Source: an uncultured Armatimonadetes bacterium
GTDB taxonomy: Bacteria > Armatimonadota > UBA5829 > DTJY01
Length of the DNA stretch: 64,000 nucleotides
NCBI GenBank assembly: GCA_963717145.1
Contig: OY970325.1
Coordinates: 4,128,001-4,192,000, forward strand
Direction: 5' to 3'
Part shown: positions 18,227-58,461 of the stretch, in pieces
Position numbering within the stretch: the first letter of the stretch is position 1
Layout: each line of letters opens with the position of its first letter
Made by a program: the position numbers and the translations under genes
Notes under the pieces: generated by a model
Databases searched by the model: none
What the model was told of the DNA's origin: nothing
Seen by the model: the letters and a program-made list of their open reading frames with translations, nothing else

Positions 18227-18592
18227 GAGTATGGGAGTGTGGGAGTAGGGGGAGTATGGGAGTGTGGGGGTGCCGATGAACGCTGAGAGGGTCCAACAAC
18301 TGGTTAGGGAACTGCTGATCGAGATCGGGGAGGATCCGGACCGCGAGGGCCTGCTCAGGACTCCCGAGCGCGTCGCGGCGTCGTGGGAGTATCTGACCGC
18401 GGGCTATCGGACGGATGCGAACAAGCTGGTCAACGGCGCGATCTTCACCCAGGAGATCGAGAACATGGTGATCGCGCGGGACATCGACTTCTACAGCATG
18501 TGCGAGCACCATCTCCTCCCGATGTTCGGTCGATGCCACATTGGCTACATCCCCAAGAATGGCAAGGTCATCGGGGTCAGCAAGCTGGCTAG

Positions 18593-20180
18593 CAGCCTGT
18601 CCATGAAATAACCTCTGGCGCAAGGTGCCAGGTATGTAGTAAAATACGGGTATGAGCAAGCCATACCTTCCTTATCAACCTGACCAGATATTGCTGTTGC
18701 CGCCCTTGATGTCGGAGTGGCTGCCCGAGGGACATCTCGCATACTTTGTGAGCGATGTCGTAGACAGTCTCGACCTTTCCGCGATATACGCCTCATACGA
18801 GAAAGAGGCCCGAGGAGCGCCGCCGTTCCATCCGGCAATGCTTACAAAGATCATATTCTACGGTTTGTGCCGGGGAGTGTATTCATCTCGAAAGCTCTCC
18901 CTGGCCACGTATGAAGATGTAGCCTTCCGGGTGCTTGCGGCAGGAAATCATCCCGACTTCCGCACGATAAGCGAGTTCAGGAAGAGGCATCTCAAGTCCC
19001 TTGCGGACCTGTTTGTGCAAGTGCTCAGGCTATGCGCAAGCGCCGGGCTTGTGTCGATGAAACACATAGCCATAGACGGAACAAAGCTGCTTGCCAACGC
19101 AAGCAAGCACTCCGCCATGAGCTACTCTCGGATGGTCGAGAAAGAAAAAGAGCTTCAGGCTGAGATCGAGGCGCTCCTTGCGAAGGGTCTTTCTGTGGAC
19201 GACCAGGAAGACGCGGAATATGGTCTTGACCGCCGAGGAGACGAACTCCCGGAGGAACTCGCAACCAGAGAGAAGCGGCTCGCCAAGATCAGGGAAGCAA
19301 AAGAAGCGCTGGAGCGCGAGGCCAAAGAGCGAGCATCAGCCGAAGAAGCGATGCGAGCCCAAGAGAAGGCGGAGCAGGAAGCATCCGGGAAGAAGCCTCG
19401 CGGCAGAGAGCCGGGGCCCGTAAAGACAGAGCCGGAAGGGAAGGCACAGCGGAACTTCACAGACCCGGAAAGCCGGATAATGAAGGACGCAAAGAAAGCC
19501 TTCGTGCAGGCATACAACGGACAAGCTGCGGTAGACGCAGATCATCAGATTGTAGTGGCGTGTGATCTCACGAACCAGGCAGCGGACTCACCGCATCTTA
19601 GTGACATGATCGAGGCAATCAAGGAGAACACCGGAAAGAAACCGGAAGAACTATCCGCCGATGCCGGATACTTCAGCAGCGACAACATAGAGATGGTCGA
19701 GCAGCAAGGGATCGACGCTTATATACCGCCTGACAGACAACGTCATGGCAAAGAGCCGACGGCGCCTTCCTGCCTTGATCCGGCAAAGCAATCCGCCGCA
19801 GATCGCCAGAGAGCAAAGCTCTTGACTCCTCTTGGCCGAAAGATCTACGGGAGGCGGAAGGAGACGGTAGAGCCGGTGTTCGGCCAGATCAAGAGCGCAC
19901 GGAACTTCCGAGGCTTCCTACTCCGAGGCCTTGCGAAAGCGAAGTCGGAGTGGACGCTTGCGTGTCTTGGGCACAACATGCTGAAGCTATACCGATACGG
20001 CGACCGGAAATCGATCTTCGATACGTAGATATATGACCTGGATCAGGCTGATTATCAAGGTACAAGGGGTCTTTACAGACCCTCGCCGGAAATCCGGCGA
20101 AAAACACTATCGAACAGCAGCCAGCGCGACCCCGCAGATGGGAAACTCACCCACATAGCGGGGAATTCTCAGACAGGCTG
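18593..20180 (+). mobile_element. IS1182-family insertion sequence, copy 1 (1588 bp), TSD CTAG
   Basis: TIR CAGCCTGTC/GACAGGCTG; CTAG at 18589-18592 and 20181-20184; same element at 58462-60049. Confidence 0.95.
18652..20028 (+). CDS. IS1182-family transposase
   Basis: LPEGHLAYFV, YSSRKL, PDFRTISEFR, AIDGTK..ANAS, ADAGY, VEPVFGQIK. Confidence 0.95.
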   Translation: MSKPYLPYQPDQILLLPPLMSEWLPEGHLAYFVSDVVDSLDLSAIYASYEKEARGAPPFHPAMLTKIIFYGLCRGVYSSRKLSLATYEDVAFRVLAAGNHPDFRTISEFRKRHLKSLADLFVQVLRLCASAGLVSMKHIAIDGTKLLANASKHSAMSYSRMVEKEKELQAEIEALLAKGLSVDDQEDAEYGLDRRGDELPEELATREKRLAKIREAKEALEREAKERASAEEAMRAQEKAEQEASGKKPRGREPGPVKTEPEGKAQRNFTDPESRIMKDAKKAFVQAYNGQAAVDADHQIVVACDLTNQAADSPHLSDMIEAIKENTGKKPEELSADAGYFSSDNIEMVEQQGIDAYIPPDRQRHGKEPTAPSCLDPAKQSAADRQRAKLLTPLGRKIYGRRKETVEPVFGQIKSARNFRGFLLRGLAKAKSEWTLACLGHNMLKLYRYGDRKSIFDT

Positions 20181-20452
20181 CTAGGATCGTGGATATGTTC
20201 GCCCGCCGCCTGCAGATCCAGGAGCGGATGACCGAGCAGATCGCCCGCACACTCATGGAGAGCCTCAAACCGGAGGGAGTCGGCGTCATCGTGGAAGCGC
20301 AGCATCTGTGCATGATGATGCGCGGGGTCGAGAAGCAGAACTCGCTGATGACGACCTCGACGATCCTCGGGAGCTTCCATCAGTCGGTCGCCACCCGGAC
20401 CGAGTTCCTCACGCTGATCGGACGCCATCGGTTCTGATACGGAGTGCGGAGA

Positions 20453-21429: not shown

Positions 21430-22134
21430 TCACCCCGGGGACGCCTTGTAGACTAGATACAGACCAGCGATCAGCACGAGGACTCCGCATATCTTCTTGA
21501 AGATATCGGCGCCCTTCGAGCCCTCATTCCAATCCAGGTAGCGTTGGACGAGTTCCGTCGAAGTGCCCGCCGCCGTGATCACCGAGCAATGCCCAAGCCC
21601 ATACACCAGGAGCAGCAGGACCGCATAGGCCGGGTTCGTCGGGGCCACCCGGAACGTGACCGCGAGGATCGGGCCCATGAATGCAAATGTGCACGGTCCG
21701 AGGGCGATCCCGAACACCAGGCCGAGGATGAACGCCGCCAGAAACCCCTTGCGCTTCATCCCGATCCGACCCGGCCCGGACCAGGGCATCGGGATCACGC
21801 CGAGCAGGTGCAGGCCGACGAGGAAGAAGACGCCGGCGACGAGATAGTTGCCCCACGGGCCGACATCCCCCATCATCCGGCCCGCCTGAGCGGTTATTGC
21901 GCCGATCAGCCCGATCGTGACCAGGATTCCGGCGGCAAACAGGGAGGCGATGCCGAACGCCCGGCGGGTAGTGAGCTTCCCCTGGTCGCTGATGAATCCC
22001 ACGATCAGCGGAATGCTCGACAGGTGACACGGGCTCAGAACGATGCTCAAGATGCCCCACAAGAAGGCGGCCCCCAGCGCGATGGCCGGTGTGCCCTCGA
22101 CTGCATGGCCGAATGCGGTGAACAGCCTCTCCAT
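21430..22134 (-). CDS. ccdA: CcdA/DsbD-type transmembrane thiol-disulfide transporter
   Basis: SIVLSPCHL and GIALGPCT conserved PC motifs, ~6 TM. Confidence 0.9.
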   Translation of the reverse strand: MERLFTAFGHAVEGTPAIALGAAFLWGILSIVLSPCHLSSIPLIVGFISDQGKLTTRRAFGIASLFAAGILVTIGLIGAITAQAGRMMGDVGPWGNYLVAGVFFLVGLHLLGVIPMPWSGPGRIGMKRKGFLAAFILGLVFGIALGPCTFAFMGPILAVTFRVAPTNPAYAVLLLLVYGLGHCSVITAAGTSTELVQRYLDWNEGSKGADIFKKICGVLVLIAGLYLVYKASPG

Positions 22135-22135
22135 G

Positions 22136-23038
22136 TCACTTCACTATCTTGACGATCCCCGCCTCGATCGACGCCTTGTCCCAGCCGCCCACGTGCCGCA
22201 GAACCTCCTTGCCGCCCTTGTCATAGAAGACCAGCAGGGGAATGGCCTGCGCCCCATAATGGACGCCGAGGACCGGTGTCTTGTCCAGGTCGATGTCGAG
22301 TACCGCGACCTTGCCTGCATACTTCGTGGCGAGCGCCTTGATGATCGGCGCCATCGTCAGGCATGGCATGCAGTTGACCGAGCCGAACTTCGCCACACTC
22401 GGTTTGCCCGAACGGCGCGCCTTCTCGATCGGGTTCTTGACCCATTGCGCGTACTGCTGCTTCGCCCAGGCGTCGGATATCCGGATCGAATGCCGGCTGC
22501 CGAAAGTCGCTACGTGGCTGCTGATGGCCGCGTTTGCCTTCTCCTCGCGGAGATAGTTCTTGATGGCAGTCTGGACCTGCTCATACTTGGCGCCGCCGAA
22601 CATCGTGACGTTCGCGTCGAAGAACGCATGCGCGTCCGCGTCGCTTACATCAGCCCCTGAGAGGATGATGGCATCCACGTACTGCTGCACGAGTTGGTCC
22701 TCAGTTCCCTTGACACCGCTCTTAGCCGCCCAGTCCTTGGCCTCTTTGGTGACGAGTTTTCCGACAGCGATGTCCTCCAGAAGGACGAAGCCATACCGGG
22801 CAAACTCTTCCTTGGAGGGCGATTTCATCTCGGCCAGTCGGTCGGCCAGGTCCTTCGCGGTGATCTTCACCCCATCTGTCTCCAGGAGCGCTCCGGCGAC
22901 AGCGCCTGGGACGGCCTGACGCAGGTCGCCGGATGAGAGGCCGGGGTACTTCGATTCGATCGTGACCGTATTCGCGCCACGGACTGCTCCGAGTGCGGTG
23001 GCGAGAATGAATATGATCAACGGCAGGCGTGAAATCAT
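22136..23038 (-). CDS. Exported thioredoxin with SurA-like helical N-terminal domain
   Basis: Signal peptide; C-terminal FGSVNCMPC...AIP Trx fold. Confidence 0.8.
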   Translation of the reverse strand: MISRLPLIIFILATALGAVRGANTVTIESKYPGLSSGDLRQAVPGAVAGALLETDGVKITAKDLADRLAEMKSPSKEEFARYGFVLLEDIAVGKLVTKEAKDWAAKSGVKGTEDQLVQQYVDAIILSGADVSDADAHAFFDANVTMFGGAKYEQVQTAIKNYLREEKANAAISSHVATFGSRHSIRISDAWAKQQYAQWVKNPIEKARRSGKPSVAKFGSVNCMPCLTMAPIIKALATKYAGKVAVLDIDLDKTPVLGVHYGAQAIPLLVFYDKGGKEVLRHVGGWDKASIEAGIVKIVK

Positions 23039-23052: not shown

Positions 23053-23607
23053 CTATAACTCGATGCCTTGTTTCTTGAAGGCGGCGACAATGTCTTCTTT
23101 CGCATAGAACCCGAAATGCCGGGCGAACTCCTTGCCGTCGGTTCCGTACAGGATCTGGGTGGGAATGGTGGAGATCCGATAGCGCTTCCCGGCGCCCGGA
23201 TCCTTATCCAGGCTGATCACCACGACCTCCAGCTTGCCCTTGTACTCGGCGCGCAGTTCATCCAGAATCGGCGCCATCAACTTGCAGGGGATGCAGTTGT
23301 CGCCACCGACATCCACGATCCGAGGCAGGCGTTTCGGCTTGGGTGCGACCTTCTCAGGCTGCGTGGCGGGCTCCTCGGTCTTGACCGATGCCTTTTCGGG
23401 CTCGGCTTTTGGGGTGGCCACAGCGGGCTTGGTCTCAGGGCGCACCGGCTCGGCCGGTTCGGGCTTCTCCGCGGGCGATGAGGCCGGCGCATCCTGCACC
23501 ACGGCATTATCAGCCGGGGGCTTATCACCGTCACCCCTAAGGCTGAAAGCCGTGATGACCGCGGCCGCCAGCAGGACTACTATGATCAGCTTCCACATCT
23601 TGGCCAT
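23053..23607 (-). CDS. Exported/anchored thioredoxin family protein
   Basis: N-terminal hydrophobic segment, Pro/Ala linker, DVGGDNCIPC...TIPTQ. Confidence 0.88.
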   Translation of the reverse strand: MAKMWKLIIVVLLAAAVITAFSLRGDGDKPPADNAVVQDAPASSPAEKPEPAEPVRPETKPAVATPKAEPEKASVKTEEPATQPEKVAPKPKRLPRIVDVGGDNCIPCKLMAPILDELRAEYKGKLEVVVISLDKDPGAGKRYRISTIPTQILYGTDGKEFARHFGFYAKEDIVAAFKKQGIEL

Positions 23608-23714: not shown

Positions 23715-23945
23715 CTACTTGACGAGATCGGCGATCTCCTTCGGGCTGAGCAGCTTGCCCGTGGACTTGATCTCGCCGTCCACCATCAGCGCCGGAGTCG
23801 AGAGCACCCCGGCCTTCATGATCTCCATCAGGTCGGTCACCTTCTCGACCTCGGCGTCGATGCCGTACTCCTTGACGGCCCGTTCGACGTTCTCGGTGAG
23901 CGCTTTACATTTCTGGCAGCCGGCCCCGAGAATGCGGATTTTCAT
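23715..23945 (-). CDS. Small redox-active disulfide protein (MTH895/Thioredoxin_3 family)
   Basis: MKIRILGAGCQKC...GVLSTPALMVDG. Confidence 0.92.
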   Translation of the reverse strand: MKIRILGAGCQKCKALTENVERAVKEYGIDAEVEKVTDLMEIMKAGVLSTPALMVDGEIKSTGKLLSPKEIADLVK

Positions 23946-24132
23946 TATACCATTCCTTTCAGCGCAGGAGTGCCACTGATTTGACGCGAAAAGCGGATGA
24001 AATTGGCACAGCCACGAATCACTTATGTTAGGGGCGAAGCATTGGCCTATCGGATATCCAACTGCCCCGGGCCGATACGCCAATGCTTCGCCCGCCGTCG
24101 AGTACGATTACGAGTACGAGTAGGAGTACGAA

Positions 24133-25203
24133 CTAGAGCAACAGGTTGAACAGATACCCCACCAGCAGTATACCCACCGCTACCACACCAACGAACACGG
24201 CAATCAGTCGTGGCTTCAGCACTCGCCGCAGGATGATCGTCTCCGGGAGCGAGAGCCCGATGACCGACATCATGAACGCGAGCGATGTCCCGAGCGCCGC
24301 GCCCTTCTCCATCAGCGCCTGCACGACCGGCACGATCCCCGCCGCGTTCGAGTACATCGGGACACCGATGAGCACCGCCGCCGGGACGCTCCACCATACT
24401 CCTTTGCCCATGAATGAGGCGAGCATCCCCTCAGGCACGTAGCCGTGGATCCCCGCGCCGACCGCGATCCCTGCGACGACATACGGCCACACCTTGCCGA
24501 CGATCTCCCGCACGGCATCGAGCCCGTACCGGACCCGGCCGTCCCAGGTCAGGCTCGCTCCCTCCGACGCTTGCGCCATCTTCACGTCGAATACCCAATC
24601 CTCGATGAACCGCTCCATCCTCAGCCGGCCGATGACCCATCCGGCGACGATGGCGACCAGCAGCCCGGTGCCGACGTATAGAGCCGTGACCTTCCAGCCG
24701 AACATGCCGTAGAGCAGGACGATGGCGATCTCGTTTATCATCGGCGCGGCGATCAGGAACGAGAACGTCACACCGAGTGGCACACCGGCCTCGACGAACC
24801 CGATAAACAGCGGGCATGCCGAACACGAGCAGAACGGCGTCACGATGCCCAGACACGCGGCCATGATGTTGCCGACGAACTCCTTCTTCCCCGCCAGAAT
24901 GCCTCGGGTCCGCTCCGGGGTGAAGAACGATCTGAGCATCCCGATGCCGAAGACGACGAGCAGAAGGAGCATCAGGACCTTCGGCACGTCATATAAGAAG
25001 AACGCCACGCTGCTGCCGAGCCGGCTCTCGAGCGACAGGCCGAGCCACTTCGACGTGATGAAGTTGGCGGCGGGCTTGAGCCATCGGTACACCAGCACCC
25101 ACAGCACGAGTCCGACCGCCAGCATCACATACAGGCGGCCACCGGCTCCGGGCTTGTCCGGAGCAGTAGCGCTCTCACAGCAGCATTTGTCGTTGTTAGT
25201 CAT
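24133..25203 (-). CDS. arsP: ArsP-like permease (DUF318)
   Basis: TPFCSCSACPLF, GVPMYSN, GLSLPE. Confidence 0.9.
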   Translation of the reverse strand: MTNNDKCCCESATAPDKPGAGGRLYVMLAVGLVLWVLVYRWLKPAANFITSKWLGLSLESRLGSSVAFFLYDVPKVLMLLLLVVFGIGMLRSFFTPERTRGILAGKKEFVGNIMAACLGIVTPFCSCSACPLFIGFVEAGVPLGVTFSFLIAAPMINEIAIVLLYGMFGWKVTALYVGTGLLVAIVAGWVIGRLRMERFIEDWVFDVKMAQASEGASLTWDGRVRYGLDAVREIVGKVWPYVVAGIAVGAGIHGYVPEGMLASFMGKGVWWSVPAAVLIGVPMYSNAAGIVPVVQALMEKGAALGTSLAFMMSVIGLSLPETIILRRVLKPRLIAVFVGVVAVGILLVGYLFNLLL

Positions 25204-25248: not shown

Positions 25249-26103
25249 TCAGCAACCTCCCCTGGGCTTGGTTGCGCGAACGAACGCACTGATGATCGAG
25301 CCGACCAGTGTGGCGACCCCCTCTGTCCCAAGCTCCCGGATCACGTCCTCGGGCACGATGCCATTGGCGTCCTCAGTGGAATAGGTCCGAGCGATCTCGA
25401 CAGACGGATAGGCAAACCCTGCGTCGAGGAGCTTGGCCTTGTAGTCATCGACATGAAGCGCGCCGGCGACGCATCCCGCCCAGAGCGCGAGATGTCTCTC
25501 CAATTCGGCGGAGAGCGGCCGTGTCAGCACGATATCGGCAACGGCGAACCGACCGCCCGGCTTGAGCACCCGGAACGCCTCCCGGAGCACCTGGTCCTTG
25601 TCGGTCGAGAGGTTGATCACGCAGTTACTGATGATCACATCCACCGAGCAGTCCGGGAGCGGGATGCTCTCGATCTCGCCTCTGAGGAACTCGACGTTCT
25701 CGACGCCGGCTTCCTTCTGGTTCTGACGTGCGAGCGCGAGCATCTCGTCGGTCATATCGAGGCCGTATGCCTTGCCGGTCGGTCCGACGCGCCGGGCCGA
25801 GAGCAGGACATCGATCCCGCCGCCGCTTCCGAGATCGAGCACGACCTCGCCCGGCTTCAATTCCGCGAGGGCGAGCGGATTCGCGCATCCCATCGAGGCG
25901 AGCAACGCCTCGACCGGGATGCCCTGGGTCTCGGCCTCGGTGTAGAGGTCGCGGGTGATCGCATCCTTGCACGGGGCACCGCCGCAACAACTGGTTTCCT
26001 TATGCTCGCCCGCGTTCACCGCGACCTGGCCGTACTTCTCCTTCACGTAATCCTTGATGGTGTTCCCACCACCCGACGAACCGCAGCAACATTTCTCTGA
26101 CAT
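25249..26103 (-). CDS. arsM: Arsenite S-adenosylmethionine methyltransferase
   Basis: [39 protein letters not shown]. Confidence 0.95.
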
Positions 26104-26206: not shown

Positions 26207-26527
26207 TCACAGCTTGCATGCCGCCATCTTGTGTTCTGCATCCGCGCGGATGACCGCATCTATGCACCCGAGGAAATCGAGGATGCATGGGCAGCAGAGT
26301 CGGTAGTAAACCTGCAAGCCCTCTTTGCGGTCGGACACGATACCGGCATTCCTCAGCACCGCAAGATGTTTCGATACCGTGGACATATCCGATCCGACGA
26401 GCGCCTGCAGTTCGCAGACGCACAGCTCCCCGTCCGCGAGCGCCTCGACCATCGCGAGACGGCTTGGGTGCGACATCGCCTTTATCACCTGGGCCTTGGC
26501 CCTGTAATGTCCCTCGTCGTATGTCAT
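26207..26527 (-). CDS. arsR: ArsR/SmtB family repressor
   Basis: [27 protein letters not shown]. Confidence 0.92.
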
Positions 26528-27588
26528 CCCGCGGCCTCACAGATCGGCTCGAACCATCTCTTGCGGAACGCGAACGCCACGTTCACCAGGCCGATCATCA
26601 CCGGCACCTCGACGAGCGGGCCGATCACCGCCGCAAACGCCGCGCCCGAGTTGATGCCGAATACGGCGACCGCCACCGCAATCGCCAGCTCGAAGTTGTT
26701 GCTGGCGGCGGTGAACGAGAGGGTAGTCGTCTTGCCGTAATCAGCACCGACCTTCCGTCCCATGTAGAACGACACCAGGAACATGAGCACGAAGTAGATC
26801 AGCAGCGGGACGGCGATCCTGAGCACGTCGAACGGCTGACCGATGATCTTCTCGCCCTGGATGCTGAACATGACGATGATCGTGAACAGCAGCGCCACGA
26901 GCGTGATCGGGCTCACCCTCGGAACGAATTCGCGCTCGTACCACTCACGGCCTTTGAGTCGCAGGAGGATGAACCGCGTGAACATTCCGCCCAGGAACGG
27001 CACTCCCAGGTAGACGAAGACGCTCTTCGCGATCTGCCCGATGCTGACGTGGACTGCGATCCCTTTGAGGCCGAAGAGCGGCGGGAGCACCGTGATGAAA
27101 ACGTAGGCGAACACCGAGTAGAAGAGCACCTGGAAGATCGAGTTGAAGGCGACGAGCCCGGCGGCATACTCACGGTCGCCGTCCGCGAGGTCGTTCCAGA
27201 CGATCACCATCGCGATGCACCGCGCGAGGCCGATCATGATCAGGCCGACCATATACTCCGGGTAGCCGCGCAGGAAGACGATCGCCAGGAGGAACATGAG
27301 GATCGGACCGATCACCCAGTTCTGCACCAGGGAGAGCGCCAAGATCCTGAAGTCGCGAAATGCCTCGCCGAGCCGCTCATACTTCACCTTGGCGAACGGC
27401 GGATACATCATCAGAATAAGCCCGATCGCGATCGGGATGTTCGTCGTCCCGACCTGGAACCGGTTGATGAACGGGACCACCCCGCTTACCAGGTAGCCGA
27501 GCGAGACTCCGACCGCCATCGCCGCGAAAATCCACACCGTCAGATAGCGGTCGAGACATGATAGCTTCTTGCCGATACCATCGGCCAT
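26524..27588 (-). CDS. acr3: Acr3 family arsenite efflux transporter
   Basis: [40 protein letters not shown]. Confidence 0.96.
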
Positions 27589-27736
27589 TCGCGAACCTCC
27601 TCTGTAGGGAACGGCCGCTGTCCCGTTCCGCCTCACGTAGGGAACGGTCGCCGCCCTGTTCCGCCTCGACGACGGGAGTCGTCAAGGCATCGTGGCGTGA
27701 TCCCCTGACGACTCCCGTCGTCGGGGCGCACCGTAC

Positions 27737-27773
27737 TATTTGGCATTATAGCCAAATAGCCAAATGGTGTCAA
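27737..27773 (-). promoter_or_regulatory. Consensus sigma70 promoter with overlapping palindromic (ArsR-type) operator
   Basis: TTGACA(27773-27768)-17 nt-TATAAT(27750-27745); TATTTGGC-N6-GCCAAATA centred on the -10. Confidence 0.85.
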
Positions 27774-27871
27774 GGGGTCGTGTAGGAGGGATTCTGCGGG
27801 ATGGTTTGTGCCCGCTAGTTCCGAATGAGGGGAGGTCGGGATTACCGGGCACAAACCATCCCGCATAATCC

Positions 27872-28618
27872 CTACAGCTCGGTCTTCTCTTTGGCGGCCC
27901 GCATGGCTTCTCTCTTCGCCTTGATCTCCGCCATCAAGTCGTGCATGCGGTCGAGTGCCGCTGCCTCTCCCTCGTTGCGCGGCGCGTACCACGGATGACG
28001 GACCCTCATGGTGAGGGATGAGCAGATCGGCTCGTCGGGGAATGCGCCGGGGTCGAACAACTCATAGTCGCGGAACCGTGTCGGCTGCTCCTGGTAGCAG
28101 GACCAGACGGCATCGCGCACCAGCATGGGATCGCCTTCGTCCAGCAGATCGATGATCCTGATCTGCCGTCGAAAGCGCTCGATGGCATCAATGGGGATGT
28201 TGTACAGATACGGTGTAAGAGCCTCCGAACCAATGATCCTCCGGTCGTCACCCACGCCGTTGAGAAGCAACGCATTCAGGGTTTGTCCGACGAGATGCCC
28301 CGGCGATTCAGGGCCGCAGATCACGAGGTAGCGGATGTTGGGATTGGCCACGATGTTGCAGATCACCTTCTCGATGCCGATATTCTCCGTCTGGAGCGTA
28401 CCGGCGAGCGCCGCGCCTGTCTCTATCCCAATTCGCACCAACTGCTCGATGCCGGGTGGTATGGCGTCGTCGGGCCACTTGAGGACCGCACACACGGCCA
28501 CAGGGGACAGGTCATTCCCGCGCAGGTAGCGCCCCTCTTCGGGTGGATACTCGGCGGGCGGCGTCACCTTGAAACCAGGGTTAGGCTTCCAGACCCGGGC
28601 GTCATCGTCATCCCGCAT
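27872..28618 (-). CDS. MtrA-like corrinoid-binding protein (tetrahydromethanopterin S-methyltransferase subunit A family), soluble
   Basis: SPVAV, GAALAGTLQTENIGIEKVICNIVANPNIRYLVICGPESPGHLVGQ, IIG...PYLYNIP..AIERFRRQ, DPGAF, collinear with recalled archaeal MtrA including the cobalt-ligand His. Confidence 0.9.
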   Translation of the reverse strand: MRDDDDARVWKPNPGFKVTPPAEYPPEEGRYLRGNDLSPVAVCAVLKWPDDAIPPGIEQLVRIGIETGAALAGTLQTENIGIEKVICNIVANPNIRYLVICGPESPGHLVGQTLNALLLNGVGDDRRIIGSEALTPYLYNIPIDAIERFRRQIRIIDLLDEGDPMLVRDAVWSCYQEQPTRFRDYELFDPGAFPDEPICSSLTMRVRHPWYAPRNEGEAAALDRMHDLMAEIKAKREAMRAAKEKTEL

Positions 28619-29072
28619 TGCCGATCTCCTTCGCCTCGATGCTTCGGTGCAACACTATCGGCAGGCAGAGAAGAATGAACCCGACGTCCCTGGCGATCAG
28701 GCTCCAGCCGACTGTGTCGCCGGCGTGCGAAAGGGTGAAGCAGCCGCACTCGATGCTCAACCCGCGAGCCATGGCCGAAGCCGCGGCCGCGATGAACACG
28801 ATGTTCAGCCCGGCGAGCAGAATCCCGCCACTTCTCAGGAAGACGCCTGTGATCAACGACAGGCCGCACAGCACCTCAACCCAGGGCATCACGATGGCGA
28901 AAACGTTGACGGTCGGGACGGGGAGAAGGCGAAATCCTGCCACGCTGTCCGCGAAATCCGACGGCTTCAGGATCTTGCCAACCGCAGCATAGATGAAGAT
29001 CGCGGCCAGGGCCAGGCGGCATACGATTGCGACAGTCTTGTTGCGAAGGATCCAGTCCAGCGTCCTGTGCAT
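28608..29072 (-). CDS. DoxX/MauE family membrane protein
   Basis: FIYAAVGKI, PWVEVLCG, RGLSIECGCF, RDV. Confidence 0.9.
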   Translation of the reverse strand: MHRTLDWILRNKTVAIVCRLALAAIFIYAAVGKILKPSDFADSVAGFRLLPVPTVNVFAIVMPWVEVLCGLSLITGVFLRSGGILLAGLNIVFIAAAASAMARGLSIECGCFTLSHAGDTVGWSLIARDVGFILLCLPIVLHRSIEAKEIGNAG

Positions 29073-29758
29073 CAGTCGCCTGCCTTCATTCCGGATGAAG
29101 TCGGGTATCCGGCGTCCGTCCATCCGGGCAGGCCTTCGAGCATGATCACCACGCGGGTGTGCCCGAGCGCGACGAGTGCATCCGCCAGTTTGATCGCGGA
29201 CGAGCACTGCACATCGCTGCAATAGGTTACCAGCAGCCGATCTTTCGGAATCTTGCCGAGGACTTTCTCGTAGTCCTCCTCGACCGACTCGTACCCGAGC
29301 CATAGCGCACCGGCTATGTGTTCTGCCTCATAGTCCTCGACTGCTCGTGCGTCCAGGAAGATCGCGCTCTTGTTGTCGTAGCAGGCTTTCGCGTCACTGA
29401 GGTTCGTGAAGAGCGCCTGGATCTTCTGCGCCGCAGGCTTGGGCTTCGTCGCTCCGGGGATCGGTGCGACTTCAGTCTTCGGCTTCACAGGCTCGGACTC
29501 CTTGATCGGCTTCTCGGGCGACACGGTTGCCGGCGCCGACTCGATTGCGGTCGGCTTTGCGCTCGGCGCAGGAGTCGGCTTGCGTTGTGGCGACTGGGCC
29601 ATCAGCAGCTCCCTCTTGACCGTGAGCCTCGTCTCGGAAAGCGGCTTCCGGATGAGCGGCAGACCGTCAGAGCGCAAGGCATTCGAGGTGATGCCGAGAA
29701 CGATCGCGATGGCCAGGAGAATCCCGGCCTGAGCGATAACTCTACGAGCTGCCGGCAT
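29072..29758 (-). CDS. Membrane-anchored rhodanese-like protein
   Basis: FLDAR...HIAGA, TYCSDVQC, LEGLPGW. Confidence 0.9.
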   Translation of the reverse strand: MPAARRVIAQAGILLAIAIVLGITSNALRSDGLPLIRKPLSETRLTVKRELLMAQSPQRKPTPAPSAKPTAIESAPATVSPEKPIKESEPVKPKTEVAPIPGATKPKPAAQKIQALFTNLSDAKACYDNKSAIFLDARAVEDYEAEHIAGALWLGYESVEEDYEKVLGKIPKDRLLVTYCSDVQCSSAIKLADALVALGHTRVVIMLEGLPGWTDAGYPTSSGMKAGD

Positions 29759-31133
29759 CCTTCGTGGCCTCCTTTACGATGTTTCCATATACAGGTAGAC
29801 TGATTGACTGGCCTTCGGGGAGGTCAGTGACGATCTTCAATTGTTCCATCACCCTGTCCTCGACTTTGCCGGCAGTCACCACCAGGCTGAGTTTGTAGCT
29901 GCCCTTGCCGTCCTTGAGCGGCTTGAAGCTGGTGATGCGCGCGTACTTCCCCGGCTCAGTCTTGACGATCTTGAATGGCTTGGGAGTCAGCGGCGTGAGA
30001 GTGATCGTCGTTTCGTACTTCCCGCCAGGCTTGAGAGTTCCGAAACTGACGGTGTCGGGACTGAGCTTGGCAATCGGCTGAATCTCGGCTTGCACGGTGA
30101 GCATTATCTTCTCGTGCGCGGGATCATTCGTCTTGACCAGGACGCGCTTCTGTACCTTGCCTTCGTAACCCGAAGAGTCGAACGCGATCTCCACCTTCTC
30201 TGAAGCGCCGGGAGCAATCGGGGGAATCGAGGCCCTGACGACCCTGGTGCACGTGCATATCGCCGTGGTCTTCGTTATCTCCAACGGCGACTTCCCTGTG
30301 TTCTTGTAAGCGAATACCGCCGTGCCCTTCTGTCCTGTGGCAATCTTGCCGAAATCGAATACGGTCTTCTCGAACTCGATGGTCGGCGCCATCGACGGGT
30401 CTACGGCGACGGGAGGCGGTTGTGCCCCATTTCCGGCCCCGGACATCACGTTTCCGTACAGGTAGTGGGCTATGGACGGGTTACCGGGAAGGTCGGTAAC
30501 GATGCTCAGTTGTCCGAATATCCTCTCGGGGGCCTCACCTGCGGTTACCTGGACCTTCACGGAGTACTTTCCATCCGCTCTGGGCGTCTTGTCGAATGCC
30601 TTCACGGTCACCTGCTTGGTGCCGCCGTCTACGCTTAGTATCTTGAACTTCTGTTTTACCAACGGAGTGATCAGAATCTCTGTCTCGGTAGTCGAATGAG
30701 GCTTAAGGTTGCCGAGTGTGGTCTGGGGAGGGGTCAAGTCGGCGATAGGCAGCACCTCGCCTACTATCGACAGTGTTGTCGTCGGATGGTCCGGATCGTT
30801 GGTTGCGACGGAGATCGTCTTGCCGATCGGCCCTCTGAAGCCGGAGGAGCTGAACACTGCCTCGATTGACGCGGACTTGCCAGGGAGCACTTTGACCTGA
30901 GTGGCTTTGGCATCGGTGCAGCCGCAGGACGCGCGCAACTTTTTGATCTCCAGTTCGGCATCGCCCGTGTTCTTGAACGGGAAGACCGCCTTGACCTTCT
31001 CCCCTTCGAGGGGCGTGCCGATGTCGAAGCTGGTCTTCTCAAACTCGATCGTCGCTGCTGCCATAGACGGCATGCTTGTGAGCAGATAGAGGCCTAACAG
31101 CAGGCCGATCATAGTAAGATAACGTAGTCTCAT
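29742..31133 (-). CDS. Secreted protein with two DUF1573 Ig-like modules (CxC motifs)
   Basis: Signal peptide; FKNTGDAELEI..ASCGCT and YKNTGKSPLEI..AICTCT; TNDP motifs. Confidence 0.85.
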   Translation of the reverse strand: MRLRYLTMIGLLLGLYLLTSMPSMAAATIEFEKTSFDIGTPLEGEKVKAVFPFKNTGDAELEIKKLRASCGCTDAKATQVKVLPGKSASIEAVFSSSGFRGPIGKTISVATNDPDHPTTTLSIVGEVLPIADLTPPQTTLGNLKPHSTTETEILITPLVKQKFKILSVDGGTKQVTVKAFDKTPRADGKYSVKVQVTAGEAPERIFGQLSIVTDLPGNPSIAHYLYGNVMSGAGNGAQPPPVAVDPSMAPTIEFEKTVFDFGKIATGQKGTAVFAYKNTGKSPLEITKTTAICTCTRVVRASIPPIAPGASEKVEIAFDSSGYEGKVQKRVLVKTNDPAHEKIMLTVQAEIQPIAKLSPDTVSFGTLKPGGKYETTITLTPLTPKPFKIVKTEPGKYARITSFKPLKDGKGSYKLSLVVTAGKVEDRVMEQLKIVTDLPEGQSISLPVYGNIVKEATKDAGSS

Positions 31134-31161: not shown

Positions 31162-31860
31162 TCAGACCTCTTGTCCCATCCGCACCGCTGATCCTGCAAC
31201 GGTCCTGCCTTCTACAAGCTCGACCACACGACCGGCGCGGGCTGCCATGCGTGGATCATGAGTGACCATTACTATGGTTATACCCTCATCGATCAGATTC
31301 TGCAACATATCGGTTACACTGTCAGCGGTTGCTGGGTCGAGGTTGCCGGTCGGCTCATCGGCGAGGATGATTGACGGGCTGTTGGCCAGCGTCCTTGCCA
31401 GCGCCACCCGCTGCTGCTGGCCGACGCTCAGTTCCGACGGCTTGTGGTGAAGACGGTTTCCCAGGCCCACCTTGTGCAAAACGGATTCAGCGATGCCCTG
31501 TTGTTCATCTCGCGTCTTGCCGGCGATCATGAGCGGCACCTGCGTGTTCTCGAGGGCCGTCAGGTACGGTATCAGGTTGAAGGTCTGGAACAGGAAACCG
31601 ATCTGCGACCTCCGGAGTTCGATGCGCTCGGCTGGCCGGAGATCGTAGATCGAAACGCCGTTGATCAAGACCTTGCCGGATGTGGGGCGGATCAGTCCGC
31701 CAAGGCTGAGCAGCAGAGTCGTCTTGCCACTTCCGCTCGGGCCGACCAGTGCCACGTACTCGCCCGGCTCGATACTGAGATCGACGCCGGCGAGACCGGC
31801 GACTTCCTTGCTTCCCCGTCCGTAGTTCTTAGAGAGCGATTCGGCGGCTAGAATGGTCAT
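31162..31860 (-). CDS. ABC transporter ATP-binding protein (LolD/MacB-type)
   Basis: [29 protein letters not shown]. Confidence 0.95.
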
Positions 31861-31861
31861 G

Positions 31862-33091
31862 CTATCCCTCCATCAGGATCGTCGCCGGATCGAGGCCGGC
31901 CGCGCTCCGTGCCGGTATCGCGGTGGCGAGGACGCTCAGGGCCACTGAGATGAGCAGCGCCCAGGCGAGCAGCGACGGCATCGGGAGCACGGGGATCTGC
32001 GCGATCCGCGGCCCGAGCCATATGGCCAGAACCGTCCCGAGCACATAGCCGATCAGCCCGCCTGCCCCGCCCAGGATGAGCGCCTTGCTGTAGAATATCG
32101 AGAGCACCTGCCGCGGGCTCATGCCGATGGCGATCAGCGTGCCGATCTCCTTGCGCCGTTCCTGGACATTGGCGAACATGTAGTTGGCGATGCTCACTCC
32201 GCCGACCAGCACGATGATCACCAGGAACACGAGCGAGAACTGCGCCATCATGTTGTTGGTCTTGAGCTGCGTGCTGGCGATCTGCGTGACCGTCACCACT
32301 CTGGCGTCCGGCAGGAGCTTGTTGAGCCCCTCGATGAGGCCCTTCGATATCTCCTTGCAGCAGCCGACGACCTCGATCGCGCTGAGCACCCTGCCCTTGC
32401 CGAACATGGTCTGCACGGTGTGAAGGTGGGCGAAGATGCGCGAGTCGTCAACCGTCCCGGTCTGCGGCAGCACCTTCCGCACGGTGAAGCTGTTCCCCTT
32501 CACGGAGAGCTTGCTTCCCTTTGCCAGGGAGAGAATCCGGGCGGCATCGAAGCCGATGATCGCCTGGTCCTGCCCCAGGTCCTGGATGACCTCTTTGCGG
32601 ACGGCTGCCTTGTCGAGCCCGGCATCATCCTGCGTCTTCGCGCCGGGGACTTCGACCGCGCCGCATCCTTGTGGCCTGCTGAAGATGTCCGCCGACATCT
32701 GCCATGCGGGCTTGCTCTGGAACTCGTTCTTCGGCAGGATGCCGGTCAGGATGAACTTCCGGCCATTGAGCGTCACCGGCACGCTCAGCTTGGGCGAGAG
32801 GTTGTCCACGCCCTGCAGGTCGGAGGCCGTGATCTGATCGACGTATGACTCCGGAAGCTCCTCGCTCGCGAAGTCGGCGCTGTAGTAGTCGCTCACGGTC
32901 GCCGACTTGGGCAGGATCAGCACGTTCGCGCCCAGGTTGTCCAGTTCACGTGCGACCGCCTTCTCTGAGAAGTAGGTCACCGTGCGGATCCCCACGATGA
33001 CCGTGATCCCGAGTGTGATCGCGATGAAGCTGGTCACGAGCTGGCTCTTCCGCTCGAGCAGCTCCTTGAAAACGATATCGAGCTTTCTCAT
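31862..33091 (-). CDS. ABC transporter permease (FtsX/MacB-type)
   Basis: N-terminal TM, large periplasmic domain with GCG and GCC, ERRKEIGTLIAIG, C-terminal TMs. Confidence 0.92.
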   Translation of the reverse strand: MRKLDIVFKELLERKSQLVTSFIAITLGITVIVGIRTVTYFSEKAVARELDNLGANVLILPKSATVSDYYSADFASEELPESYVDQITASDLQGVDNLSPKLSVPVTLNGRKFILTGILPKNEFQSKPAWQMSADIFSRPQGCGAVEVPGAKTQDDAGLDKAAVRKEVIQDLGQDQAIIGFDAARILSLAKGSKLSVKGNSFTVRKVLPQTGTVDDSRIFAHLHTVQTMFGKGRVLSAIEVVGCCKEISKGLIEGLNKLLPDARVVTVTQIASTQLKTNNMMAQFSLVFLVIIVLVGGVSIANYMFANVQERRKEIGTLIAIGMSPRQVLSIFYSKALILGGAGGLIGYVLGTVLAIWLGPRIAQIPVLPMPSLLAWALLISVALSVLATAIPARSAAGLDPATILMEG

Positions 33092-33121: not shown

Positions 33122-33985
33122 CTACTTTGCCGGGCCGCATCCGCTCGGGCCGCAACCGCTTCCGCAAGAGGCCATGGCGCTCTGCAGGCTTGCCATCAGC
33201 TTGGCCTTGGTCGTGTTGCCGTCGAATGTGCCGAGGACCCTGCCCGGAGGGATGATCATCAGCACCTGTGAGTTCGCTGAGGCGGTGTTGACCTTGCACA
33301 TCTTGAGGAAACTGGACTCCGCCTTGTCAGAAGGGTCGATCTTGACTAGTTGGACCACGCCGGTCAAAGCCTTGTCCGCTTTCATGCCCTCGGCGGCAGC
33401 CACGCTCTCTTTGTTGTACTTGGTCCTGCCATTCTCGAGGCACACCAGCGCGAGCTTGCCGCTTTGGACAGCCTTCAGCACGGCGGCCTGGCCGTCAGAT
33501 ACGAAGGCTTCGGCGACAGCGGTGGAGGTGATCTCTTTCGGATTCTGGTAAGCGCCTGTTGTGGCTCCGTTGGGAGCGACCACGAGCGCCACCGGGATCG
33601 GCGCTCGGTCTACGGCCAGGCGTTTGACCAACGGCTGATTGGCGGTATCGCCGACAGCGACAGTCACGAAGTCCGCGCGACTCGCCAGCTTGCCTTGAAT
33701 GGCTTTTACGGTTGCCAGCATCTTGTTGCTGGCGGCATCGCCTTTCTTGTAGAAAGTGACGAACGCATAGCGATTCTTGCCCGCGGCGGCCCGGACTGCC
33801 TTCTCTGCGGGCGTCTCACTGGGCGCGGCCGGCTTTGCCTGGGCGGCCGGCTTTGCAGATGCCGCCATCGCCTGTTGCTCCAGGCCGCCCATTCCAGGCC
33901 TAGTGTGATGATACGTCGCGACGCTGACCACGACTGCGACGACGATCAGCAGACTTACTGCGTAGAATACCTTACTTCTTAGCAT
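33122..33985 (-). CDS. Exported hypothetical protein with Cys-rich C-terminal tail
   Basis: N-terminal hydrophobic anchor; ends SCGSGCGPSGCGPAK. Confidence 0.75.
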   Translation of the reverse strand: MLRSKVFYAVSLLIVVAVVVSVATYHHTRPGMGGLEQQAMAASAKPAAQAKPAAPSETPAEKAVRAAAGKNRYAFVTFYKKGDAASNKMLATVKAIQGKLASRADFVTVAVGDTANQPLVKRLAVDRAPIPVALVVAPNGATTGAYQNPKEITSTAVAEAFVSDGQAAVLKAVQSGKLALVCLENGRTKYNKESVAAAEGMKADKALTGVVQLVKIDPSDKAESSFLKMCKVNTASANSQVLMIIPPGRVLGTFDGNTTKAKLMASLQSAMASCGSGCGPSGCGPAK

Positions 33986-34046: not shown

Positions 34047-34412
34047 TCACTCGAACTCTGTCTGCACTCCCGCGATGGAGACCGGCATGCGGTCAAGCTT
34101 GTCCTTCGGCGGGCAGACACTCGCCTCGGTCGGCGCCGCATCGAGTGCCACAATCACATCATCCAGGAAGTCCTTGACGACTCCGGACACAGTCTTCCGG
34201 TTGAGTGAGTAATGCGACCACTGACCCACTCGCTTGACATGCACCAGGCCGGCATGTCTAAGCGTGGCCAGGTGATGGGATGCCGAGGATTGGCTTATCT
34301 CGAGTTCCTCAGTGATCTTGCAGACGCACATCTCGCCGTTAAGGGCAAGCATCTCGACGATCCGCAGCCGTGTGGGATCACCGAGAGCTCTGAAGACGCC
34401 GGCTATCAGCAT
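34047..34412 (-). CDS. arsR: ArsR/SmtB family repressor
   Basis: FRALGDPTRL, EMCVCKI, SASHHL; GGAGG SD before ATG at 34412. Confidence 0.92.
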   Translation of the reverse strand: MLIAGVFRALGDPTRLRIVEMLALNGEMCVCKITEELEISQSSASHHLATLRHAGLVHVKRVGQWSHYSLNRKTVSGVVKDFLDDVIVALDAAPTEASVCPPKDKLDRMPVSIAGVQTEFE

Positions 34413-34435
34413 GATTCTCGCCTCCATGCGCGTAT

Positions 34436-34484: not shown

Positions 34485-34527
34485 GCCCAATATACCTCGG
34501 AAAGAGTTCACGATCAAGGTAGCAGAC

Positions 34528-34593
34528 GTCATTCTGAACGCAGTGAAGAATCTGGCCGTGCGCAAACAGATTCTTCACTGCGTTCAGAATGAC
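34528..34593. repeat. GTCATTCTGA.CG.AGTGAAGAATCT palindrome family
   Basis: Inverted arms; copies at 58368-58444 and 61159-61229. Confidence 0.9.
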
Positions 34594-34677
34594 ATCCGCG
34601 CAGCGCAACTATCAACAATCGTGAACTCTTACATACCTGGGGGGACGATTCTGCTCAGAGATGTGGAGTGCTGCCCG

Positions 34678-35595
34678 TCATGGGGGGAAGGTCCGCACGA
34701 AGTAGTCGTAGGCCGCGAGCAGCGACTTGGCGCCGTCACCCGCGGCGATCACGATCTGCTTACCGGGCACGCTCGTCACGTCTCCAGCCGCGAAGATTCC
34801 GGGGACGCTTGTGCGACATCCGCAGTCCACCTCGATCTCCTTCCAGCGGTTCAGCTTCACCTCGGCAGGCAGGTAATCAACGTTCGGGACCGCCCCGATC
34901 TCGACGAACACGCCTGCTAGTGGGATCTCCGTCTCTGCCCCGGTGTCGAGATTCTTCACTCTGATCCCCTTCACGAACTGATCGCCATAGATCTCGATTA
35001 TCTGTGTGCGCAGCATGATCGTCTTCTTGCCGCCGGCACGCACGCGGTCCTGCAGTTCCACGTCGCCGGTGAGGTGGTCTTGAGTATCGAGGATGTAGAC
35101 GTGACTCGCGAACTCGAGGAGTTGCATGGCGGCATCGAGCCCGGCGTTTCCCGTTCCGACGACGGCGACATCCATATCGCCGTACAGAGGAGCATCGCAC
35201 GTGGCGCAATAGGTCACCCCACGCGCCTTGAACTCATCTTCGCCCACCACGCCAAGTCTTCTGGCTGATCTGCCGGATGCCACTATCACCGACCGACCTT
35301 CGTAGGTGTTGCTGGCTCCCGTCTCGACGGTGAATGCCATCCCGTCGATCCTGAGACTCGTGACCGCTTCCTGGACCACCTCGACGCCGAAGTCCCGAAC
35401 ATGCGATTCGAACTTCTGGACGAGGTCGTAACCCGAAATGTACCGGTAGCCGAGGTAGTTCTCGATCTCGGCCGCCCACATGGCCTGGCCGCCGATCTGC
35501 GGCGCGATAACGACCTGGTCCACCTTCTTGCGCGCCCCATAGACCGCGGCCGTCATCCCCGCCGGGCCCCCACCGATGATGATCACGTCGTGCAT
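34678..35595 (-). CDS. trxB: Thioredoxin reductase / AhpF C-terminal-like
   Basis: IIGGGPAG, GVTYCATCD, IFAAGD. Confidence 0.9.
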   Translation of the reverse strand: MHDVIIIGGGPAGMTAAVYGARKKVDQVVIAPQIGGQAMWAAEIENYLGYRYISGYDLVQKFESHVRDFGVEVVQEAVTSLRIDGMAFTVETGASNTYEGRSVIVASGRSARRLGVVGEDEFKARGVTYCATCDAPLYGDMDVAVVGTGNAGLDAAMQLLEFASHVYILDTQDHLTGDVELQDRVRAGGKKTIMLRTQIIEIYGDQFVKGIRVKNLDTGAETEIPLAGVFVEIGAVPNVDYLPAEVKLNRWKEIEVDCGCRTSVPGIFAAGDVTSVPGKQIVIAAGDGAKSLLAAYDYFVRTFPP

Positions 35596-43219: not shown

Positions 43220-44089
43220 CTAGGCCGCTCGTTCGAGAGCGGCCGCCTCGAAATCGGCGGGACTCCGATAGCCGAGGCTCGAGTGGAGTCGCTGTCGATT
43301 GTAGAACACTTCGATGTACTCGAAGATATCAGATCTCGCTTCCTCTCGTGAGGAGTATGTTCGATGATGTATCAGCTCGGCCTTAAGCGTCGCAAAGAAG
43401 CTCTCCATCGGGGCGTTGTCATAGCAGTTCCCGGCGCCGCTCATGCTGGCTCGAATTTCGTAGGCTTCGAGAAGCCTACGAAATTCGCCGCTCGCGTACT
43501 GACACCCTCGATCCGAATGATGGATGACTTCGCCGACCGGTCTTCTGTTCTTGTATGCCATCCTGAGCGCCTCACTTGCGAGCACACTCCCAAGCGTCTC
43601 TTTCATCGACCAGCCCACTATCTGGCGCGAGTAAAGATCCATCACCGCCGAAAGATAGAGCCAACCCTCACGGGTATGCACATACGTTATGTCGCTTACC
43701 CAGACACTGTTCGGTCTGGCTACCTCGAAGTTTCTCTTGAGCAGATTCGCCGCCACAGGCTGGTTGTGCCTGGAGTTAGTCGTAACACGGAACTTCCGTT
43801 TCTGTCTTGCGCGGATTCCGTTTGCTGTCATGAGCCTGGCCACACGGCCTCTGCTGCAGGTCTCACCCGCCTGCCGAAGCCGTATGTGAACCCTCGGGCT
43901 ACCGTAGGTGTCTCTGCTCTCGGCGTGGACCTCCCTGATCCGTGTGAGCAGCTTCTCGTTCTTCCTGGCGCGATCGCTTTCGGGACGCCCCTGCCACGCG
44001 TAGTAGCCGCTCCGGCTCACACCGAGCACCCCGCAGATCGTCCCGATCCTGAAGCGGCCGTCTTGAGCAGCGATGAAGGCGTACTTCAC
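43220..44089 (-). CDS. IS3-family transposase OrfB
   Basis: YGSPRV, WVSDITY, HSDRGCQY, CYDNAPMESFF. Confidence 0.95.
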   Translation of the reverse strand: MKYAFIAAQDGRFRIGTICGVLGVSRSGYYAWQGRPESDRARKNEKLLTRIREVHAESRDTYGSPRVHIRLRQAGETCSRGRVARLMTANGIRARQKRKFRVTTNSRHNQPVAANLLKRNFEVARPNSVWVSDITYVHTREGWLYLSAVMDLYSRQIVGWSMKETLGSVLASEALRMAYKNRRPVGEVIHHSDRGCQYASGEFRRLLEAYEIRASMSGAGNCYDNAPMESFFATLKAELIHHRTYSSREEARSDIFEYIEVFYNRQRLHSSLGYRSPADFEAAALERAA

Positions 44090-44367
44090 TGCTGCTCCCT
44101 CGCAAAGTACGCCGCCGCTTTTTTTAATATGTCTCTCTCCTCTCGGAGGAGATCGTTCTCCTTGCGGAGACGCTTCACTTCGTCCTCAAGGGACTCTCTC
44201 TTCCTGGGATCGATCTCTCCCAGGCTCTCCTTGTACTTCCTGATCCAGGCGTCCAGGCTGTTGATGTTGACTCCCAGTTCCTTTGCGATCCGAGCTTTGC
44301 TCGCCCTGCCGGAAAAGGCCAACTTCACCGCCTCCGCCTTGAAGCTTTCTGAATACTGCCTCTTCAT
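44086..44367 (-). CDS. IS3-family transposase OrfA
   Basis: YSESFKAEAV HTH, ERDILKKA. Confidence 0.93.
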   Translation of the reverse strand: MKRQYSESFKAEAVKLAFSGRASKARIAKELGVNINSLDAWIRKYKESLGEIDPRKRESLEDEVKRLRKENDLLREERDILKKAAAYFAREQQ

Positions 44368-58444: not shown

Positions 58445-58461
58445 TGAATAATCTGGGCTAG

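Follow-up and report, generated by a model that had tools for sequence, protein, structure and literature searches.

The window analysed here, a stretch of 64,000 nt from an uncultured Armatimonadetes bacterium (contig OY970325.1), contains at positions 27872..28618 on the minus strand an open reading frame (ORF) of 248 aa with an ATG start whose product is, to judge from its sequence, a soluble protein with the fold of MtrA and not a part of the Mtr pump, and whose closest relatives in other genomes lie largely in arsenic resistance (ars) clusters. We propose that such MtrA-like proteins may be the core of a widespread, undescribed cobamide-dependent route of arsenic methyl transfer in anaerobes, either the arsenic counterpart of the mercury methylase HgcA or the missing oxygen-independent demethylase, and, more broadly, that corrinoid proteins with an MtrA domain and under the control of ArsR/SmtB regulators may add alkyl groups to soft metals and metalloids or take them off, including forms encoded beside heavy-metal P-type ATPases on plasmids. 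The case for and against this general proposal seems to us evenly balanced.

The four motifs from which an earlier note, drawn up from the DNA alone, had recognised a soluble protein collinear with MtrA are all found in the ORF (TENIGIEK at residue 77, NPNIRYL at 92, GHLVGQ at 107 and DPGAF at 189), and the profile search that it had suggested returned the MtrA family PF04208 (E 1.5e-41, 142.3 bits against a cut-off of 25, profile positions 3–157 of 173). PF04208 is the sole Pfam family matched at E <= 0.01; neither the classical B12-binding domain (PF02310) nor a domain of the HgcA/CFeSP type was matched. The protein also exceeds the cut-off of NCBIfam NF002126 (184.2 bits against 161), a subfamily named MtrA by inheritance, and at 139.9 bits does not reach that of TIGR01111 (249.15), the equivalog for subunit A of the Mtr complex. 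Among solved structures the closest match is 5LAA (HMMER, E 4.6e-40), a cytoplasmic homologue of MtrA from Methanothermus fervidus with cobalamin bound, and an AlphaFold2 (AF2) model built from 20 sequences, which is of moderate quality (mean predicted local distance difference test score, pLDDT, 71.8), matched the same structure with a target TM-score of 0.90 and had no further significant fold match. There is no C-terminal membrane anchor, as the earlier note had stated: the highest 19-residue Kyte–Doolittle mean in residues 180–248 is 0.13, and residues 216–246 are predicted in the model to form a charged helix.

The absence of other mtr genes, which had been claimed for the window, extends to the host genome (5.37 Mb, a single contig, 98 % complete) for those partners that were sought: PF04208 has one match in the whole genome, and neither MtrH (PF02007) nor MtrE (PF04206) has any, the search having left out MtrB, C, D, F and G. 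The only acr3 and the only arsM of the host lie within 2.6 kb of this only MtrA-family gene, and by simple arithmetic the chance that a random host gene falls within 6 kb of a single acr3 is ~0.2 %. The genome encodes at least 8 B12-binding domains over cut-off and includes CobS; CbiD was not found in it, and because CbiD is absent the host probably salvages corrinoids and does not make the ring itself.

Relatives were sought in one genome per species and 366 were found; the locus counts given here are for the best 80 of these (55–74 % identity), which span 16 phylum labels. All ORFs 70 aa or longer that lie no more than 6 kb from the MtrA-like gene were clustered across the loci, clusters that were antisense shadows were removed, and each remaining cluster was named from one representative using Pfam or NCBIfam, or a motif in the case of ArsC. 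Enrichment for ars genes, the second check that the earlier note had called for, was evident, with 63 of the 80 loci including at least one of Acr3, ArsM, ArsC, a PF03773 permease or a flavoprotein of the FMN-reductase family within 6 kb. Acr3 was present at 47 loci, ArsR at 45, ArsM and the PF03773 permease at 31 each, an ArsE-family thioredoxin at 30 and ArsC at 27, followed by CcdA or thioredoxin genes (14–15), ArsF-family (13), DGC-domain (11) and ArsG-family (10) proteins, a small ferredoxin (7) and a heavy-metal P-type ATPase (5). Searches with the window proteins (tblastn, within 5 kb) located Acr3 at 43, ArsM at 24 and the ArsE-type thioredoxin at 31 of the 80. When the count is limited to loci flanked by 5 kb or more on each side, 28/36 are ars-linked, and an organoarsenical-type gene is present in 27 of these 28, ArsM or the PF03773 permease in 25. 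The flavoprotein cluster was considered as a possible ArsH and rejected, as it had no NCBIfam ArsH match and belongs only to FMN_red, the family that includes ArsH. The small ferredoxin (L004, L007, L079 and four further loci) is ~100 aa long with two Cys clusters and a conserved PW..GYPRE motif at its N-terminus, and its best NCBIfam resemblance, a weak one, is to ferredoxins of the HgcB type (32 bits, cut-off 99).

Within the ars clusters the MtrA-like gene is found in many gene orders, often overlapping ars genes, and at three loci (L067, L072 and L099) the operon is a minimal one of arsR, the MtrA-like gene and acr3. Three of 40 relatives of the host carry the gene. In two relatives from the same family the order is an arsR1-like gene, the MtrA-like gene and acr3, with arsR directly preceding the MtrA-like gene, and in the one on a long contig the cluster continues after acr3 with arsM, arsP, thioredoxins and ccdA. 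The six genes that separate arsR1 from the MtrA-like gene in the window stand there only in this genome, at none of the 80 loci, and are absent from relatives G005 and G010; because relatives have arsR directly before the MtrA-like gene, these six are either a local insertion here or have been lost elsewhere. What is conserved is the association with the acr3/arsM/arsP side, not that with the genes for an ABC exporter, DUF1573, rhodanese and MauE proteins that lie upstream. The earlier note had envisaged a B12-dependent metalloid module, and the profile match, the association with ars genes and the conserved cobalamin-contact residues described below speak for it; the ArsR-headed operon in which it placed the gene does not supply the conserved partners, DUF1573, rhodanese and MauE genes being found beside the MtrA-like gene at 0/80 loci in the tblastn searches.

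The cobalt ligand in 5LAA is His84, with a hydrogen bond to Glu54; Thr53, Asn55, Gly57 and Asn64 hold the nucleotide tail, whose base lies between Tyr18 and Val61 (PMC4915002). These contacts were transferred to the window protein through the HMMER alignment, and their conservation was read from an alignment of 20 subfamily members (A1). The His that had been placed at the cobalt-ligand position, H108, does align with His84, and E78 aligns with its partner Glu54; both are invariant (20/20), as are T77, G81 and N88 in the tail pocket, which correspond to Thr53, Gly57 and Asn64. N79, the counterpart of Asn55, is conserved in 18/20. Position 31 (Tyr18 in 5LAA), a Y in the window protein, is Tyr or Phe in 20/20, and position 85 (Val61), here V, is V, M, I or L in 20/20. 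This pattern of residues makes it likely that the protein binds a cobamide, which would be bound base-off with His108 on the cobalt.

In the window, the MtrA-like gene closes an operon headed by an arsR gene, and the features of the region, in the direction of transcription, are as follows.

34047..34427, minus strand: ArsR1, motif EMCVCKI, head of the operon (profile match)
33122..33985, minus strand: 287-aa protein, hydrophobic segment at the N-terminus, C-terminal tail rich in Cys (no family over cut-off)
31162..33091, minus strand: ABC exporter, made up of an ATPase (31162–31860) and a MacB/LolCE-like permease (31862–33091)
29742..31133, minus strand: double-DUF1573 protein, OS_HP2 family (profile matches)
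29072..29758, minus strand: rhodanese-domain protein with an N-terminal hydrophobic segment (profile match)
28608..29303, minus strand: MauE/DoxX membrane protein, domain from ORF residue 90
27872..28618, minus strand: MtrA-like soluble, putative corrinoid protein, 248 aa (profile matches, 5LAA alignment, AF2 model)
27785..27875, minus strand: long hairpin starting at the MtrA-like stop codon (-59.1 kcal/mol, z -10.9, 0/200 shuffles equal)
27738..27773, minus strand: promoter of the acr3 unit, TTGACA-17-TATAAT (27773–27745), 12/12 matches to the sigma-70 consensus
26524..27636, minus strand: Acr3 arsenite efflux pump (TIGR00832, 457 bits against a cut-off of 283)
26207..26527, minus strand: ArsR2, motif ELCVCEL (profile match)
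25249..26103, minus strand: ArsM, S-adenosylmethionine (SAM)-dependent arsenite methyltransferase (NF008823, 340 bits against a cut-off of 263)
24133..25203, minus strand: PF03773 (ArsP_1) permease, motif TPFCSCS (E 3.7e-76)
23715..24083, minus strand: MTH895/ArsE-family small thioredoxin-like protein (TIGR00412, 104 bits against a cut-off of 62)
23053–23607 and 22136–23038, minus strand: two exported thioredoxin-domain proteins (profile matches)
21430–22134, minus strand: CcdA/DsbD-type membrane protein, weakly ArsG-like (profile match)

The eight genes from ArsR1 through the MtrA-like gene are packed on the minus strand with gaps of no more than 61 nt or overlaps, and the MtrA-like start codon, preceded by AAGGAG, overlaps the MauE/DoxX stop by 11 nt; the earlier description of the gene as the last, translationally coupled member of an ArsR-headed operon was correct. 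Upstream of ArsR1, TTGACA (34484–34479) and TATCAT (34461–34456) with a 17-nt spacer were read by eye. The true start of the MauE/DoxX protein is likely at 29072, overlapping the rhodanese stop, that of Acr3 is likely the Met at 27588, and the ArsE-family ORF probably has an internal start, since its domain occupies residues 48–121. The CVC motif of ArsR1 and ArsR2 we take to be the As(III) site. The gene was also said to stand immediately before acr3-arsR-arsM-arsP, and here the order is right and the direct adjacency is not, as ~235 nt holding the hairpin and the promoter separate the MtrA-like gene from acr3. The hairpin is likely the transcript end or a stabiliser of the upstream operon, and because a hairpin and a perfect promoter lie between the two, acr3-arsR-arsM-arsP very likely has its own transcription start. 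The perfect inverted repeat ATTTGGC-N6-GCCAAAT (27738–27757), with 1 exact match in the window and 0.09 expected at <= 2 mismatches, covers the -10 box of this promoter and is a candidate ArsR operator. ArsM, of which the genome has no other copy over cut-off, is encoded 1.8 kb downstream of the MtrA-like gene; the predicted complex of the two proteins (alignments A2 and A1) scored 0.00, which counts neither for nor against contact.

A few further elements were seen around the cluster. A near-perfect inverted repeat with arms of ~30 nt, read by eye, lies at 34500–34620 (minus strand) between a thioredoxin-reductase-like gene (34678–35595) and the ArsR1 promoter. Two copies of an insertion sequence (IS) of ~1.6 kb, each encoding a 458-aa DDE_Tnp_1/DUF772 transposase, are found in direct orientation at 18587–20189 and 58456–60059; they are 99.9 % identical, and the 38-kb segment between them contains the entire ars region and resembles a composite transposon. 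Also in the window, a direct repeat with identical copies of 300 nt or more (43354–43653 and 44421–44720, spacing 1067 nt) lies within the adjacent plus-strand ORFs 43364–44434 and 44431–45699 and looks like a recent tandem gene duplication.

Longer proteins with an MtrA-like domain are also found. Among the 63 considered (E <= 1e-10), 51 consist of the MtrA domain and unassigned sequence only, five include a TusA domain, five a thymidylate-synthase domain and one a SAM methyltransferase, and one has no recorded domain. A family of 437–526 aa from the Desulfobacterota and archaea (P0123–P0177, for example P0128 and P0138), whose MtrA-like domain is 55–59 % identical to the window protein, includes an N-terminal TusA domain in some members and a long tail that ends in a conserved, Cys-rich PCQKTAG.CKIG.GCF. 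The fusions to thymidylate synthase, a family of folate-dependent, folate-binding enzymes, are ~526 aa long (P0178–P0183) and share 35–49 % identity with the window protein. The fusion of a class I SAM methyltransferase to an MtrA-like domain (P0122) was rejected as support, being a singleton with a C-terminus that looks frameshifted and a methyltransferase that shares no more than 30 % identity with ArsM and has none of the ArsM cysteines. P0003, a near-length hit in which an ArsC fragment is followed by an MtrA-like domain, is a partial sequence with a normal start Met at the junction, and represents adjacency and not necessarily a true fusion. Three Planococcus plasmids encode a 459-aa protein that joins an MtrA domain, with 40 % identity over 155 residues and the TEN and GH motifs retained, to the Pfam domain PterinBD-DUF4346, and in the one plasmid that was read (L109:4491–5870) an ArsR/SmtB regulator, a small cation-transport protein and a heavy-metal P-type ATPase directly precede it. 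No literature mentioning DUF4346 was found.

Taken together, sequence and gene context suggest a mechanism in which the MtrA-like gene would be accessory to the arsenic-resistance clusters that ArsR controls in anaerobes, presumably induced by arsenic, and its product a methyl carrier whose cobalt would cycle between Co(I) and methyl-Co(III), a methyl group moving between cobalt and arsenic. The direction we favour is from methyl-Co(III) to trivalent arsenic, and the methylated products would exit via an ArsP-type permease or as volatile arsines. Methyl loading and reactivation of Co(II) would be the work of enzymes encoded elsewhere, as is assumed for HgcA, and the host has two RACo-type reductive activases. 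Methylation is preferred to demethylation because it would mirror the native half-reaction of MtrA, in which cobalt loses its methyl to a nucleophile, and because it needs no substrate-specific demethylase. Methylcobalamin methylates arsenite non-enzymatically. The fusions to the folate-dependent thymidylate-synthase family also fit a donor role better than an acceptor role, as do the Planococcus plasmids, because no methylated substrate is expected beside a metal pump. We put forward a cobamide methyl carrier under ArsR control, working from methyl-Co(III) to As(III), as a tentative reading that falls somewhat short of probable.

Several observations weigh against it. No ars gene was seen at 17 of the 80 loci, though three of these are on contigs of less than 4 kb and two hold only ArsE/F/G-type genes, and the 20 neighbours from seven of the 17 that were scanned for a conserved methyltransferase or activase are mutually unrelated and include no corrinoid methyltransferase. 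Eleven of the 17 fall, with 99 % support in a quick tree, into one clade of 17 rows with members from the Desulfobacterota, Spirochaetota, Actinomycetota and Methanosarcina, and because this clade is mostly outside ars contexts the arsenic link is not valid for the whole subfamily. Outside the clade, 6/64 rows lack ars genes, and the ars label changes 13 times on the same tree against a shuffled mean of 15.8, a weak clustering. The clade itself (L051, L057, L065, L068, L071, L076–L078, L081 and others) has no common neighbour, and the role of its members may differ. The archaeal meander consensus GAIPF-Y/F-xEN that follows helix alpha3 is only partly kept, reading ALTPYLYN here with the Pro, an aromatic residue and the Asn retained and the Gly and Glu changed, and the plasmid and fusion relatives are no more than 35–40 % identical. 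No methyltransferase able to load a corrinoid is conserved beside the gene, ArsM being within 6 kb at 31/80 loci only, and wherever a locus has ArsM, another route of methylation seems superfluous. Finally, the minimal operons of arsR, the MtrA-like gene and acr3 place the gene where an As(III)-making enzyme usually stands.

That position suits the reverse reaction, in which Co(I) would demethylate mono- or dimethylated arsenic (MAs or DMAs) and free As(III) for Acr3 as an oxygen-free counterpart of the C–As lyase ArsI; the methyl would then go to folate or a thiol through enzymes whose genes lie elsewhere. The organoarsenical genes of nearly all ars-linked loci with full flanks also suit it, as do the record titles of most carriers, which point to anoxic habitats and lineages, and a precedent exists in the corrinoid-dependent demethylation of methylselenide (PMC10418091). 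ArsI is oxygen-dependent and, in the methanogenic soil described in a 2026 preprint (bioRxiv 10.64898/2026.08.27.747368), its transcripts were not seen, and the mechanism of anoxic DMAs demethylation is called unclear in PMC10579292. Demethylation would, however, make a futile cycle with ArsM wherever the two are co-located, no substrate-specific methyltransferase is conserved nearby, and chemistry suggests that SN2 attack on methyl-As(III) would have a poor leaving group. In two paddy-soil studies an inhibitor of methanogens put an end to demethylation, a sign that archaea and not bacteria carry it out (bioRxiv 10.64898/2026.08.27.747368; PMC10579292). On balance, demethylation seems to us possible but doubtful. 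The conserved ligand residues, the strong ars link and the lack of a conserved methyltransferase partner are also consistent with a protein that binds a cobamide and serves arsenic stress without methylating arsenic, as a shield or store of cofactor against attack by arsenite or methylarsenite on methyl-corrinoid enzymes, as a decoy, or as a Co(I) reductant. Thiol-redox genes (ArsE-family thioredoxin, ArsC, CcdA/thioredoxin) and in some loci the small ferredoxin are indeed close by. Nevertheless, all characterised members of the fold are, according to PMC4915002, methyl carriers, and a cobamide shield in ars operons is without precedent; we judge such a role unlikely, and it would be hard to tell from methylation or demethylation short of experiments.

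Two readings dispense with the corrinoid chemistry or with arsenic. In one, the fold was kept and the cofactor lost, and C87, C101 and C174 would bind As(III) in a metallochaperone or buffer resembling ArsD. Cys-based chaperones are common in ars operons, and C87 is invariant (20/20 in A1) where 5LAA has Ala; C101 and C174, also invariant in the subfamily, are however Cys in 5LAA too and so not subfamily-specific, the protein has no vicinal Cys pair, and selection for a Cys site would leave the invariance of His108 and Glu78 and the conserved side chains of the tail pocket unexplained, which makes this reading very unlikely. Least likely of all, in our view, is a housekeeping corrinoid role unrelated to arsenic, with the gene a passenger of ars islands. 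The patchy distribution among relatives of the host, the IS copies that flank the gene and the clade found mostly outside ars contexts would be expected of a passenger, but a passenger would not hold a position inside the clusters, directly after arsR in relatives and often overlapping ars genes, through many gene orders and over distances that span 16 phylum labels. Methyl transfer from cobalt to arsenic remains the reading we favour.

As to novelty, no literature was found that ties MtrA homologues or MtrA-type corrinoid proteins to ars genes or arsenic, nor did the exact annotation phrase combined with 'arsenic' give a literature match. The 2026 preprint seeks the mechanism of anoxic demethylation among mtaB-type methyltransferases of methanogens (bioRxiv 10.64898/2026.08.27.747368), and work cited there on methanogen contigs with both methyltransferase and arsenic genes may bear on this point. 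The main text of AsgeneDB lists only arsM, As3mt and arsI for methylation and demethylation, with 0 mentions of MtrA, corrinoid or cobalamin. Bacterial MtrA homologues are already on record, with His84 mostly conserved and, in the account given in PMC4915002, no function assigned. The earlier view of the module as undescribed can be kept for the arsenic link and not for the proteins: it is the link that, in the literature searched, appears to be new, the protein family and its automatic name being already known.

Methylation and demethylation of arsenic in anoxic soils set the amount of toxic dimethylarsenate that reaches rice, and the only enzymes on the books are the SAM-dependent ArsM and the oxygen-dependent ArsI. 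The MtrA-like gene is a small, soluble candidate that is already within ars clusters across the range of phyla sampled and could be tested with one purified protein, and its context hints at an undescribed B12-based adding or removal of arsenic methyl groups in many oxygen-avoiding bacteria. If this is true, it would supply the first function for the 'cytoplasmic MtrA homologues', which have been without one since 2016, and correct the misleading automatic annotation 'tetrahydromethanopterin S-methyltransferase subunit A' for organisms without that pathway; on confirmation, the gene belongs in arsenic gene catalogues.

Among known systems, the closest in structure is the cytoplasmic MtrA homologue 5LAA, which is likewise soluble, with a single Rossmann-type domain and a base-off/His-on site with a His–Glu linkage, and which also has no function assigned in PMC4915002. 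That protein is archaeal, 170–180 aa long and 97 % identical to the Mtr subunit of its own host, whereas the window protein is bacterial, 248 aa long and distinguished by a conserved N-terminal YPPEEGRYLRGND segment, two short insertions, the invariant Cys87, a conserved tail (LFDPGAF...TWRV..PWYAPR followed by a helix) and its ars context. It shares its corrinoid domain with the MtrA subunit of the Na+-pumping methyl-tetrahydromethanopterin:coenzyme M methyltransferase (PDB 8Q3V, 9QTQ), in which a nucleophile removes the methyl from Co(III), and differs in having no transmembrane anchor, in the absence of MtrH and MtrE from the genome and in scoring below the TIGR01111 cut-off. The type 1 mlp clusters, or Sdm system, are a similar case, in which bacteria have taken over a corrinoid methyl-transfer system of the methanogen type to deal with a metalloid, but their corrinoid protein is of the MtaC type and they have MtaA-like methyltransferases and an activase of their own, and neither arsenic nor MtrA occurs in the main text of the paper (PMC10418091). 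ArsM and ArsI are encoded in the same operons as the MtrA-like protein and would share its substrates; they differ from it in fold and use SAM, and Fe(II) with O2, respectively, and neither uses a cobamide. HgcA, with its CFeSP-type domain, Cys cobalt ligand and membrane domain, is not homologous to the MtrA-like protein, for which Pfam reports the MtrA family only. The likeness to HgcA/HgcB is one of logic: a corrinoid protein would be directed at a toxic element, the cluster encodes no methyl-loading enzyme of its own, regulators of the ArsR type are found close by and, at a minority of loci, so is a small ferredoxin.

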